NCBI GenBank assembly: GCA_040399745.1
Contig: JBBARP010000008.1
Span: 4,133-68,132, forward strand
Length of the DNA stretch: 64,000 nt
DNA from: Bdellovibrionia bacterium
Lineage (GTDB): Bacteria; Bdellovibrionota; UBA1018
Direction: 5' to 3'
This document shows positions 48,948 through 53,716 of the stretch, piece by piece. The position numbers and the translations under genes were made by a program. The notes below the pieces were generated by a model. That model was not told where the DNA came from. It saw only the letters and a list, made by a program, of their open reading frames with translations, and did not search any database. Position 1 is the stretch's first letter; every line of letters starts with the position of its first letter.

Positions 48948-50327
48948 TTACTGCGCTGGAACTGCACCGCTGGGACTGCCTACGCCTCGCTTGGATCCCT
49001 GGGATGTTTTCAGGCGGCCGCTGGGGCTCAGGTGTCCAAAACGCTGCACGAGCGCCGCTTGAAGGGTTTCTAGGTGGGAAACGAGTTCTGAAAACTCAGC
49101 GTCGCCTTTAATGCTTTTTTTGCAGTTTTCTGCCCCACTCCAGAATTCATCGACCGAGTGAAAGTCGCTACCCAATCGGGCTTCGGTTTCTCGTTGTTCT
49201 TTTTGGAGCTGGTCGGTCTGGGCTTCGAGGCCCCGCTGGTCGGCTGCTTGTTCGCTGGCCAATTGTTCAAGCTTTGAAAACGAAGTAGCCGCTTCATGGC
49301 CGATCAGCATCGAGTCTTGGGCGTTGAGTTCCCGGGCCCCGTTTTGGGGGTCAGAAAGAAGGACAGTGAGTTCTCCATTCGGAGAGAGACTCACGGACAC
49401 GCGTTGCTCGGGCGAAAGATTCCCCTGCAGCGACGATTGAAGTGCCGAGCGTAAGTGGGACGCGCGTTCGGATCGCTCCTTTTTTCTCTCTATGAAGGTG
49501 TCCGTGATGCGCTTTTCTTGGCTTTCGAGCTCCTGCAGCGTTTGAGTAGTCGAAAATGAGCGCGCACACTCGGTTTGGCAGCGGCGTAAGTAAGCTTCAA
49601 AAGTGGTGCGAAGGAGCGCTTGAAACTGCTTTCGAAGCGCAGGCGTATTGGCGTGCGGAGTGAGGGCGGGTGCTTGTATCAAGGGTGTCGAAGGTTCGCG
49701 GTTCAGAGTCCGCTTGAGGCGTGGCTCGAATGCGACGTTTTGCGGAGGCGTGGCTTCTTCCAGTTGCGCGGAAGGGAAGTGAGGTTCTCCTTGCGCCTGT
49801 GGATTGCCTAAACTGAAGCCAAGCGGCCAGGTCGAACGCCCCAGGCCCGAGTGCGCAATGGGTAGTGACGTGACCGTGATGGCACTGTCTTCTGCAAGCT
49901 TTGCCTTCAATGGTAGGGAGTAGCCGCCCTCGGGAGTGAAGACCCAGACCGTTTTCTCGGGCTCACCGTTTGGCGCTTTTTCTTGGGGTGACTCAAGCGC
50001 CAGCGCAAAAAAGGGCGACGAAGCGGAAGAGTCTCGGGCGGCTCGGGCAGGCGTGTACCTCCCTAAAGCCCAAGCCTCCTTGGGGCGTGAAATGTCCTGC
50101 GACAGTTTTTGATTGGCAACCACGCAGCCCAGCAGCGACTGCATGGGGTTTTTCTCGGGCTCTGGGCCTTTCGCCAGCGCTGCTTGCGAGAGGGTCCATG
50201 TGAGGGCGAGTGAAAGCGCGAGTACCAATGGCCGGTAGAAAGTGCGTGCTTCTCGTTGAGTCAGGATCGTCACAAGGAGTGTCCTACCATACGGAAGTCG
50301 CGCACTTCGGTTAGGTTTTGGTTTCAA
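48948..50327 (-). CDS. secreted coiled-coil protein, paralog family B (member 2 of 2)
   Basis: Signal peptide. Conserved N-terminal motif KNPMQSLLGCVVAN shared with the 50331-51569 product. Long C-terminal E/Q/K-rich coiled-coil ending ...AQ. Confidence 0.5.
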   Translation of the reverse strand: MKPKPNRSARLPYGRTLLVTILTQREARTFYRPLVLALSLALTWTLSQAALAKGPEPEKNPMQSLLGCVVANQKLSQDISRPKEAWALGRYTPARAARDSSASSPFFALALESPQEKAPNGEPEKTVWVFTPEGGYSLPLKAKLAEDSAITVTSLPIAHSGLGRSTWPLGFSLGNPQAQGEPHFPSAQLEEATPPQNVAFEPRLKRTLNREPSTPLIQAPALTPHANTPALRKQFQALLRTTFEAYLRRCQTECARSFSTTQTLQELESQEKRITDTFIERKKERSERASHLRSALQSSLQGNLSPEQRVSVSLSPNGELTVLLSDPQNGARELNAQDSMLIGHEAATSFSKLEQLASEQAADQRGLEAQTDQLQKEQRETEARLGSDFHSVDEFWSGAENCKKSIKGDAEFSELVSHLETLQAALVQRFGHLSPSGRLKTSQGSKRGVGSPSGAVPAQ

Positions 50328-50330
50328 CGT

Positions 50331-51569
50331 TTACTGCGCTTGGCCTGCGCTGGTTGCGCTTGCAGCACCCGGTTTTCGGCCTGTGGGCGTTTGTCCGGTT
50401 CTGGCTCGAAGCTGCAGGGCTTTCAAACGGTCAAGCTCTGCCACTACCGAGCGGTAGAATGGCTGAAACTCTTCGTCCTCGTTCCAGTGATCTTTTTCTA
50501 ATGCGGCTTTGCAGCCTTTTAAGCCGCTCAGGAAATCCTCGAACGTTTTGGCTTTGAGTAAATCCACGATGACTTTTTTGACGTCTTCCTCAAGTTGCTC
50601 AAACCCACGAGCGATTTCTTCTTCTTTTCTTTTGATCTCTTTTTTCGTGGATTCGGGAGTGTTCTGGCTTTGATCGAGCTCACGGAGGTTGTCTTGCTCG
50701 GCTTCCAGGGCTTCTTCCTTTTGTGTCAGAGCCGCTTTGCGCTTTTTCAGTTCCGAGTTTTCTGAAAAGTGAGCGAGCCGTTCTCGTTCCGACTGCTTAG
50801 AGTATTCCTCGAAGCGCTTTTTGAGTTCATCGAAAAGCACTTTGCGCGTGGCGGGGTCACTTTTTTTCCACTCACCGTTCAGGACGGGGTCTGATTTCCC
50901 GCGATTTTGAAAGGGCCTCCTCACCAGGTTTGGAAATTCTCGTGTGTCAGGCGAATTCATTTCATCCAGTTGTTTTTCGAAAGACGCTTGTTGGTTCACA
51001 GTTGGGGCTGGTTCCGATCCTGGAGTGAAAGCCACTTCGACTTCTTCGAATGTCTCTCTCGGGGGTGCGTAGGTGTCTTCGCTTTCGAAGCCTCCGAGCG
51101 GAAGCCCGATGCGCTGATAGCCGCCTTCGAGTTGAAGTGTTTGTTTGAGGTAGCCATAAGAGTTCCGGGCAACTCCCGTCACGTCGACTTTGGCGGCGCC
51201 TTCGGCTGTAGGGATCCAGGCGTAGTCTTTTTTATAAGTGGCACCTGACGCGCTTTTGAATTCGAGGGTTTGAACGAGCAGGCCAGCGCTCAGGGGCGCA
51301 CCGATCAGAGCGGGTTCCCACCCGGAAACTCCTCGGACCGCCCATTTCGGGTTCGACAAGCGCCGAGTCGCGACTTCATTCGCGCTCATACAGCCTAAGA
51401 TCGGGTCCATCGGGTTTTTGATCACGGCCGGTGATCTTCCGCTTTCTTGCTTCTTACTTTTGGCGTGAACCGGAGCAGCCTGCGCAGAAATGAGGCAGTG
51501 CACGAGGAGGAAGCGAACGAAGGACGCGGGCACTCGGCTTTTCTTAGTTTTCTGCATGAGGCTCTCCAC
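50331..51569 (-). CDS. secreted coiled-coil protein, paralog family B (member 1 of 2)
   Basis: Signal peptide. KNPMDPILGCMSAN motif. Shared blocks (W-I/V-P/F-T-x-EG, FE..L, C-terminal coiled coil, terminal GQAQ/PAQ) with the downstream paralog. 3-nt gap to the next gene. Confidence 0.5.
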   Translation of the reverse strand: MESLMQKTKKSRVPASFVRFLLVHCLISAQAAPVHAKSKKQESGRSPAVIKNPMDPILGCMSANEVATRRLSNPKWAVRGVSGWEPALIGAPLSAGLLVQTLEFKSASGATYKKDYAWIPTAEGAAKVDVTGVARNSYGYLKQTLQLEGGYQRIGLPLGGFESEDTYAPPRETFEEVEVAFTPGSEPAPTVNQQASFEKQLDEMNSPDTREFPNLVRRPFQNRGKSDPVLNGEWKKSDPATRKVLFDELKKRFEEYSKQSERERLAHFSENSELKKRKAALTQKEEALEAEQDNLRELDQSQNTPESTKKEIKRKEEEIARGFEQLEEDVKKVIVDLLKAKTFEDFLSGLKGCKAALEKDHWNEDEEFQPFYRSVVAELDRLKALQLRARTGQTPTGRKPGAASATSAGQAQ

Positions 51570-52623: not shown

Positions 52624-52627
52624 GGAT

Positions 52628-53716
52628 TTATTTTTCCGGATCGGGTTCGTGCAGCCGCAATTGCCTGGAGACGCGAGAGTACTTTTCGTCGTCCGGAGAG
52701 ACGGTGATGTCGAGCCAGCTGTCGTCGTAGACGTCAGAGTGCTTGAAGTTTCGATCAAAGAGTTTCGGGTAGACGCTGAGGAAATCGGGCAACGACAAAG
52801 TGTAAGCCACAATGTCGGGCTGAATGCCTGCGCGGTACGGGCCGAACTCGATTCCGTGGGCTAGGTAAATGGCTTTGGTGAGGGCATCCGTGATCGAAGC
52901 GCTCCCGCGACGAAACGGCATGGCGTGCGCCATCCACCAGTGAATTTCTGCGACGTTTCGGACCACCACAGCGGTCGAGGCTCCGGGCGCAAGCGCTCGT
53001 TTGTAGAGGGTCTCGACATGCTGAAGGATGGGGCGAATCGCTGAGCCTTCGGTGTGGATGAAGCGCCCCGGACGGATGTTCCTGGGAACATAGTAGGTGA
53101 GAACGACCGAAGTGTCGGTTCCTGGAATATCGACCGAAAGAGGCGGGGCTCCGTAAGCGTGATCGAGTAGCCCTACCGCCAGTTCTTGGCTTGCGCCGTA
53201 TTTTGCGTCGTTTCGAGGGGTCGAGTAGCGCTCGGGGTCGGTGTCGCGACGAACACCGAAAGTGTAATCCTCGGGATCCTGGGTCTTTCTTGCGATTCCG
53301 GCCCTTACTTTTCCCAGACTGTGCAGTACGTCCAGAAGTTTGGGAGGCTTCTTGTCCATGAGCAAGAAACCTAAGTTCCAAGTGGCGTCCCACATCAGCT
53401 GCTGGAAGGTGGGGTCGACCTGAGTTTTGGGAGCGCGAATTTGAAGAGTCGCTTTCCCGATATTCGGGTCGTAACTGCCGTATCCTAAAGCGCTTCGGTA
53501 GGGGCCGGCCGATTCGATGGCTTGTCGAATGGCGATTTCTCCGCGCAGACAAGATCTCGGATCGTCGTGGTCCGAAGCGGGGGACGAAAGCGGAAGGAGG
53601 CTCAAGGCCAGGGTCAAAAGACCCGCAAGCCGAACCCAGCGCTTGGTTTGAAGTGTGCTCCCTGCCGCCACCACGGGCGACTCTTTAACTTGAATAACGC
53701 GCCGCGAAAAGCCCAA
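52628..53716 (-). CDS. secreted protein, paralog family A, member 1 of 2
   Basis: N-terminal SRRVIQV plus hydrophobic stretch (possible Sec/Tat-type signal). Conserved blocks CLRGE-AI, LQIR-P, KYGASQELA, PGR-IH, and EIHWWMAHAMPFRRGSASITDALTKAIYLAH. Confidence 0.5.
   Translation of the reverse strand: MGFSRRVIQVKESPVVAAGSTLQTKRWVRLAGLLTLALSLLPLSSPASDHDDPRSCLRGEIAIRQAIESAGPYRSALGYGSYDPNIGKATLQIRAPKTQVDPTFQQLMWDATWNLGFLLMDKKPPKLLDVLHSLGKVRAGIARKTQDPEDYTFGVRRDTDPERYSTPRNDAKYGASQELAVGLLDHAYGAPPLSVDIPGTDTSVVLTYYVPRNIRPGRFIHTEGSAIRPILQHVETLYKRALAPGASTAVVVRNVAEIHWWMAHAMPFRRGSASITDALTKAIYLAHGIEFGPYRAGIQPDIVAYTLSLPDFLSVYPKLFDRNFKHSDVYDDSWLDITVSPDDEKYSRVSRQLRLHEPDPEK

Follow-up and report, generated by a model that had tools for sequence, protein, structure and literature searches.

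Predicted Sec-exported AvrB-type Fido proteins adjoin a hypervariable pair of undescribed exported proteins in a lake bacterium

The 64,000-nucleotide (nt) stretch of contig JBBARP010000008.1 from a Bdellovibrionia bacterium, to which we refer as the window, contains a minus-strand quartet of co-directional open reading frames (ORFs), A1, A2, B1, and B2, which may encode a secreted module. A1 and A2 are, very probably, members of the AvrB/AvrC/XopAH branch of the Fido superfamily, and their fold and the conservation of their pocket suggest that they are divergent and probably active AvrB-type transferases. The adjoining B genes encode a second, undescribed family and rank with the most polymorphic genes of a background that is otherwise clonal. 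The first-pass annotation of this sequence had listed a four-gene minus-strand cluster at 48948-53716 and had divided it into two tandem-duplicated paralog families in the order A-A-B-B. The ORFs are present at these coordinates, and the paralogy within each pair is supported far beyond chance (E 6e-82 for A1 and A2, E 1e-7 for B1 and B2).

The two family A proteins are 44% identical over 296 residues. Both match the Pfam family PF05394 (AvrB_AvrC) above its gathering cut-off of 23.2 bits (A1 with 104.3 bits, E 1e-29; A2 with 88.6 bits, E 5.9e-25), in an alignment limited to the final third of the profile (positions ~218-326). With the NCBIfam model NF041403 (XopAH/AvrB) they score 103.6 and 97.9 bits, respectively, under the 220-bit cut-off for that subfamily. 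When compared with the sequences in the PDB, AvrB was the sole match to family A (E ~4e-17), and a profile built from A and the proteins closest to it can be aligned with AvrB residues 61-317, which places the similarity across the whole domain of the AvrB fold. In the structural alignment A and AvrB are 24% identical; for A1, an AlphaFold model that drew on 58 homologs has a mean predicted local distance difference test (pLDDT) score of 81, with the core above 90. None of the four products had been assigned to a recognizable family before; this still describes B1 and B2, which have no meaningful match in the libraries, and no longer A1 and A2. Nor do both families turn out to be housekeeping periplasmic proteins, since A matches a family of virulence effectors.

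As was found only recently, AvrB acts as a protein O-rhamnosyltransferase and is thereby the first glycosyltransferase of the Fido superfamily (PMC10866546). It contacts the uridine diphosphate (UDP) part of UDP-rhamnose through G46, R99, R266, and G267 and the rhamnose through T125, Y131, A269, and D297, and its R266A mutant is inactive (Peng et al. 2024, PMC10866546). AvrC, likewise a rhamnosyltransferase, is broad in its substrate specificity and also modifies itself. In A1, numbered by its form of 362 amino acids (aa), the equivalents of AvrB R99, T125, Y131, R266, G267, A269, and D297 are R138, T166, Y173, R270, G271, A273, and D301, and all seven are identical in A2. The UDP contact G46 lies outside the alignable region, and the pocket conservation covers the other seven contacts; AvrB N62 and Y65 are replaced in A1 by D101 and F104. 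The canonical Fic motif, HxFx[DE]GNGRxxR, is absent from A1 (AHAMPFRRGSASITD) and from A2 (AHAMPFQRGSAAITD), and the consensus of the two proteins at the site of this motif, AHAMPF[RQ]RGSA, is an AvrB-type variant.

A profile search of 1.84 billion representative proteins with family A yielded 950 clusters at E <= 1e-3, among which relatives over the full length, including the first 90 residues, are limited to the two paralogs (P0002 and P0012). The next-best matches are not plant-pathogen effectors. The relatives include short stand-alone proteins in which a signal-peptide-like N-terminus is followed by a cysteine (P0016, P0022, P0031, P0057, P0064, and P0122), proteins with a PAAR motif (P0024 and P0029), and giant proteins of 1,866 to 5,620 aa (P0015, P0017/L009, P0027, and P0047). 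The PAAR-fused and giant proteins match at E values of 1e-37 to 1e-21 over most of the Fido domain. P0015 (5620 aa) has six matched stretches, and the 1866-aa protein at L009:1600-7200 stems from a Myxococcales metagenome-assembled genome (MAG); in the giant proteins PF05394 is the only Pfam domain detected. These architectures imply that the AvrB-like domain may be used as a type VI secretion or polymorphic-toxin-like module, and a literature search found no paper on AvrB-like domains in PAAR-fused or giant proteins. Because the domain occurs in several export contexts, we regard it as a deliverable module.

Within the AvrB superfamily, A1 and A2 fall in a subgroup whose members carry N-termini of the type used by the general secretory (Sec) pathway. 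The small AvrB-like proteins with Sec-like N-termini come from unrelated metagenomes and have their cysteine within ~10-20 residues, as in the CLRGE of A1 and A2. Some of the proteins encoded next to them (loci L014-L017) have signal peptides, and none is B-like. A scan of genome contigs with family A recovered only distant AvrB-domain loci (in a Myxococcales MAG, Pseudomonas, Xylophilus, Paracidovorax, and Noviherbaspirillum). Full-length A or B proteins outside this lineage were not found in the homolog, profile, genome, and Joint Genome Institute (JGI) metagenome searches, and viral contigs contained no relatives of A or B.

In BLASTP, the N-terminal 245 residues of B1 and B2 show 24% identity, and a comparison of profiles made from their orthologs extends the alignment to the whole length of the proteins (hhalign 97.9%, E 6.4e-13, 338 columns). 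In each protein a signal peptide is followed by the motif KNPM..LGC..AN..S.PK.WA and a beta-rich region; next come a long helical, charge-rich region, the motif F..G..(G/N)CK, and a Gly/Ser/Ala/Pro-rich tail that ends in AQ, or in AR in one B2 allele (L006). The B1 versions of the end motifs are KNPMDPILGC and GCKAALEKD, and the motifs at both ends, including their cysteines, are strictly conserved across B1 and B2. The KNPM-x-x-LGC-x-x-AN motif that the first-pass annotation had pointed out is present in both proteins. The long C-terminal coiled coil that it proposed has moderate support: long helices are predicted, but the model is of low confidence and the heptad signal is marginal, with a crude heptad test barely above 95% of shuffles for B1 aa 302-346 and B2 aa 365-394. 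A reading of LGC as a lipobox was rejected, as it lies ~20 charged residues past the signal-peptide cleavage site.

Against Pfam, NCBIfam, PADLOC, PHROGs, and PDB profiles, family B produced only weak coiled-coil noise (e.g., LmuB, E 6e-4), and neither PADLOC, PHROGs, nor the viral contigs connect the locus to a known anti-phage defence system or to phage proteins. The homologs of B1 form eight clusters, all from the same lineage; scans of JGI metagenomes for B added only four close relatives, and no silent B cassettes were found elsewhere in the window. Family B is an undescribed, lineage-restricted family.

The gene order ddl, gdh, A1, A2, B1, B2, response regulator recurs without change in the longer related contigs (L003, L006, L008, and L018), and contigs L019 and L020 end within B2. 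A histidine kinase and then a flagellin also follow, with the flagellin within reach only on L006, L007, and L008. The related contigs derive from lake metagenomes, one of the samples being from an alpine lake (SRR10607545, Lac de l'Ouillette). The 277-aa flagellin (43545-44378, minus strand), located 6 kb from B1, shows 100% identity among 19 contigs that come from many lake metagenomes, and the organism appears to be widespread in lakes.

Within this conserved order the four genes form a hot spot of diversity. Amino-acid identity between strains is 98-100% for gdh (2% of alignment columns variable) and 94-99% for the response regulator (8%), and a comparison of three strains gives 98-100% for Ddl, the histidine kinase, and the flagellin. 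The values are 88-98% for A1 (18%), 81-98% for A2 (23%), 72-94% for B2 (35%), and 51-96% for B1 (68%). BLASTN homology across B1 breaks near 51140 and resumes near 50560. B2 is a mosaic when compared with contig L021: its first ~400 nt are 68-77% identical, and the remainder is mostly 92-98% identical, except for one window at 77%. Synonymous divergence (dS) amounts to 0.7-2.0 in B1 and 0.36-1.0 in B2 and to 0.04-0.37 in the flanks. In residues 169-228 of B1, nonsynonymous polymorphism (pN) approximately equals synonymous polymorphism (pS). Two B1 alleles, on L004 and L021, occur in one and the same sample (ERZ28612991). On L006 and L008, A1 is 97-98% identical to that of the window while B1 is only 54-74% identical, and the allele groups of A2 do not track those of B1: L025 combines an L027-type A2 with an L006-type B1. 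The raised dS together with the mosaic alleles makes relaxed constraint alone an insufficient explanation; the diversity of B bears the mark of old allelic classes recombined into near-identical backgrounds.

We revised the start codons of three of the four genes. The TTG at 53716, which gives the 362-aa form of A1, sits inside the T-tail of the gdh terminator, and most related contigs (L003, L006, L008, and L001) have A1 called from the GTG at 53674 (348 aa); for both reasons we corrected the start to the latter, although the 362-aa form is called in L018-L020 and L002. B1 most likely starts at the ATG at 51557 (408 aa) and B2 most likely at 50273 (441 aa). The latter codon, GTG in the window, reads ATG in two alleles and has an AGGA-like site in front of it. 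The revised starts leave 4, 52, and 57 nt between the genes; the 4 nt first given for the A1-A2 gap stand, and the ~40 and 3 nt given for the other two do not.

Judged by eye, each of the four proteins begins with a basic n-region and a hydrophobic h-region, followed by a small-x-small cleavage site, predicted at SPA/SD in A1, TIA/SE in A2, VHA/KS in B1, and ALA/KG in B2 (the slash marks the cleaved bond). A crude signal-peptide script flagged A1, B1, and B2. A2, the least canonical of the four, escaped the script because an arginine interrupts its h-region; its orthologs retain the same N-terminus. The earlier claim of secretion signals on all four proteins is upheld by inspection in every case and by the script in three. 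A signal for twin-arginine translocation (Tat) in A2 was rejected, as its RR is not followed by hydrophobic residues and the Tat motif is absent. Residues 28-39 of the 362-aa form of A1 appear as a low-confidence helix in the AlphaFold model. The predicted mature A1 and A2 each have a single cysteine, nine and seven residues after cleavage, respectively, and in both it is part of CLRGE. Mature B1 has two cysteines, one per conserved end motif, and mature B2 has four. This pattern hints, speculatively, at disulfide-linked assemblies.

Our preferred reading, which we put forward tentatively and place somewhat short of probable, is that the cluster is a single operon for a secreted effector or toxin module that combines exported AvrB-type enzymes with hypervariable partners. 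Spacing and invariant order suggest that the four genes are transcribed together as a single unit downstream of the gdh terminator, and the sequence features described above suggest that Sec would export all four products. From fold and pocket conservation, A1 and A2 would be protein O-glycosyl (rhamnosyl) transferases with a nucleotide-diphosphate sugar as donor. Because nucleotide-sugar donors are cytoplasmic only, the two enzymes most likely act inside another cell, and they would do so after release, in the cytoplasm of a prey, a host, or a competitor. B1 and B2 could, speculatively and by analogy with multi-subunit exotoxins, be extracellular partners of the enzymes that bind the target cell or deliver to it. 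Their variable centres might contact a co-evolving outside partner and their termini something conserved, and frequency-dependent selection together with recombination may keep the centres diverse. An arsenal of effectors or exoproteins had already been suggested for this cluster. The PAAR-fused and giant toxin-like relatives, the intact pocket residues, and the hypervariability of the locus, above all of B1, strengthen that suggestion, which we continue to word as a possibility.

A bolder version holds that the cluster represents a new class of multi-subunit exotoxin, in which a pair of AvrB-type rhamnosyltransferases is accompanied by two paralogs of new fold for cell binding or translocation. 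We consider this unlikely. In such a toxin A1 and A2 would possibly be disulfide-linked through their single conserved cysteines, and the centres of the B proteins would possibly track receptors of the prey or host. If this version were true, the AvrB class would be a general Sec-dependent weapon between organisms and not a peculiarity of type III secretion in plant pathogens. A literature search on PF05394/AvrB_AvrC/XopAH found the family treated only as type III effectors of plant pathogens, and neither the combination of A with B nor the extreme locus-specific polymorphism was found described. The locus represents a divergent AvrB branch with an intact sugar-nucleotide pocket and predicted Sec export in a freshwater bacterium. 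It gives a handle on the roles of AvrB-type enzymes outside plants, on the delivery of Fido enzymes without type III, IV, or VI machinery, and on the selective agent that maintains divergent B alleles in lake populations.

Several observations weigh against the secreted module. The signal peptides were called by inspection and a crude script only, and that of A2 is atypical. No genes for secretion across the outer membrane were found in the 64-kb window. The AlphaFold model of B1, built from nine sequences, is unreliable (pLDDT 45). Across B the ratio of nonsynonymous to synonymous divergence (dN/dS) is 0.16-0.28 overall, and B is thus without gene-wide positive selection. B-like neighbours of other Sec-type AvrB homologs were not found, which indicates that B does not accompany enzymes of this class in general. 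Neither a sigma54 nor a sigma70 consensus promoter was recognized in the interval from the gdh terminator to A1, so that a regulatory link to the adjoining sigma54 two-component pair is unsupported.

The same features allow other explanations. B1 and B2 may be hypervariable proteins of the cell's own surface or envelope, where phages or grazers would target them, and A1 and A2 may be periplasmic Fido transferases that modify them, much as a glycosyltransferase gene can be paired with a variable adhesin, pilin, or flagellin gene. The enzyme genes lie directly upstream of these possible substrate genes, and all products would reach the same compartment. The conserved ends, hypervariable centre, and old allelic classes of B resemble those of surface antigens and phage receptors, and the B proteins end in Ser/Thr/Ala/Gly/Pro-rich tails. 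The broad specificity and self-modification of AvrC would suit such a role, and an enzyme that recognizes conserved parts of B would fit the observation that A2 alleles do not track B1 alleles. However, the donors known for AvrB-type enzymes are nucleotide sugars of the cytoplasm, and we know of no periplasmic donor for any Fido enzyme. A1 and A2 are also more variable than the flanking genes, which would be unusual for a housekeeping modification enzyme, and their relatives occur in toxin-like architectures. Taken together, modification of the cell's own envelope seems rather unlikely to us, and we give scarcely any credence to the variant in which periplasmic enzymes modify B1 and B2 with a sugar from a lipid-diphosphate-linked donor.

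If A1 and A2 were antibacterial toxins and B1 and B2 the periplasmic immunity proteins against them, the fusion of AvrB-like domains to PAAR, a feature of type VI secretion toxins, and the lineage-specific, highly polymorphic downstream genes would be expected. However, A and B alleles do not co-vary (L006, L008, and L025), and the discordance between the allele groups of A2 and B1 argues against cognate pairs of toxin and immunity protein; we rejected this explanation on that ground and consider it very improbable. A1 and A2 are stand-alone proteins, the order is A-A-B-B and not one of toxin-immunity pairs, and the B proteins, with ~400 aa, predicted export, and a partly coiled-coil structure, are unlike typical immunity proteins. 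Moreover, a toxin that depends on a cytoplasmic nucleotide sugar would not need a periplasmic immunity protein. It is also conceivable, but improbable in our view, that A and B are unrelated exported proteins that happen to be neighbours and that B has diversified because, as a poorly structured protein, it is under relaxed constraint. The low-confidence model of B1, its charge-rich variable part, a dN/dS below 1, and the Sec-type AvrB homologs without B-like neighbours all agree with this. Yet the arrangement is tight and invariant in all related contigs, both families are equally narrow in distribution, dS in B exceeds that of the flanks 3- to 10-fold with mosaic alleles, and the end motifs of B, cysteines included, are strictly conserved across both paralogs.

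The surroundings of the putative secreted module are those of a core chromosome, with genes for LysRS, a LolCE-like permease, BamA, LpxD, LpxB, ribosomal protein S1, RsmB, a MurC-like ligase, GshA, Gdh, and Ddl in the window. The GC content of the cluster (0.55-0.57) is the same as that of the remaining window. The position had been called accessory-looking by the first-pass annotation; composition and conserved synteny speak against this, whereas the limitation of the cluster to one lineage and its hypervariability agree with it. Upstream, the terminator that had been attributed to gdh is indeed a strong hairpin (Table 1), which is kept in L003, L006, L008, and L018. Downstream lies the convergent two-component pair that had been described, a sigma54-type response regulator and a histidine kinase. 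In the response regulator (47498-48934, plus strand), a Ser-rich linker at residues ~140-160 has 11 of the 37 variable columns.

Table 1. Coordinates of the genes and predicted features of the cluster in the window
Feature	Position	Strand	Remarks
A1, exported AvrB-family Fido protein, 348 aa	52628..53674	-	start GTG 53674; 362-aa form from 53716
A2, A1 paralog, 337 aa	51610..52623	-	starts 4 nt past A1 stop codon
B1, exported, undescribed family, 408 aa	50331..51557	-	signal peptide aa 1-32; start ATG 51557
B2, B1 paralog, 441 aa	48948..50273	-	signal peptide aa 1-34; start GTG 50273
Predicted Sec signal peptide of A1	53576..53674	-	aa 1-33, cleavage SPA/SD
Predicted signal peptide of A2	52540..52623	-	aa 1-28, cleavage TIA/SE
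A1 Fido core motif HWWMAHAMPFRRGSASITD	52886..52942	-	holds equivalents of AvrB R266, G267, A269
A2 Fido core motif HWWLAHAMPFQRGSAAITD	51859-51915	-	sequence motif
Hypervariable B1 core (~aa 80-350)	50510..51320	-	nucleotide identity 45-68% vs 90-100% in flanks (sliding window)
Intrinsic gdh terminator	53721..53757	-	17-bp stem then T-run; upstream cluster boundary

The GC skew is positive in all 2-kb bins of the window and the cumulative skew climbs monotonically, which places the window on a single replichore, without origin or terminus. Neither ribosomal RNA nor any other Rfam match was found in its 64 kb. Two large minus-strand genes at 59656-63350, one with a Ricin-B lectin domain (444 aa) and one with an fn3 domain (787 aa), may encode further exported or surface proteins near the cluster. 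At 56402-57871 (minus strand, GC 0.605) a 489-aa ORF is accompanied by several long overlapping ORFs on both strands; the gene call in relatives is 364-391 aa, with a 78-nt indel near 56680, and this may be a gene of variable length. Two neighbouring genes for ArsA/ParA-like ATPases, followed by a gene for a TPR protein, are found at 37652-40714 (minus strand). This trio appears to be at least partly conserved in the related contigs, which end inside the first ATPase gene.

Among known systems, flagellins and pilins resemble the B proteins in evolutionary pattern only: their termini are conserved, their centres diverge like cassettes, and old alleles are recombined and coexist in one population. 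B is not homologous to them, and this organism's own flagellin does not vary. Cytolethal distending toxin and typhoid toxin have signal peptides on all subunits, which are encoded in one operon, and their non-enzymatic subunits are paralogous; the enzymatic subunit needs a target in the cytoplasm of another cell. Export of all subunits by Sec from one operon also describes A1-A2-B1-B2, with signal peptides assigned by heuristics only. In typhoid toxin a single disulfide joins two enzymatic subunits, and mature A1 and A2 have precisely one conserved cysteine apiece. However, A and B have no relation in sequence or fold to the subunits of these toxins.

Canonical Fic enzymes (AMPylators, AnkX) differ from A1 and A2 in their Fic motif, in place of which the latter have the AvrB-type variant. 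The PAAR-fused and giant AvrB-like proteins are among the nearest relatives of A and suggest that the domain is a deliverable toxin module, but the domain is fused or embedded in them, whereas A1 and A2 are stand-alone proteins with predicted signal peptides. AvrB and AvrC of Pseudomonas syringae and XopAH of Xanthomonas share significant sequence similarity with A1 and A2, in which the residues by which AvrB holds diphosphate and rhamnose are kept. Delivery by type III secretion does not extend to A1 and A2: Sec-like signal peptides take the place of the N-terminus for type III secretion and acylation, the contigs come from lakes, and type III secretion genes were not found within the window. 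Unlike these effectors, A1 and A2 belong to a freshwater lake bacterium and not to a plant pathogen, and they form a tandem pair in an apparent operon with two unrelated exported proteins.

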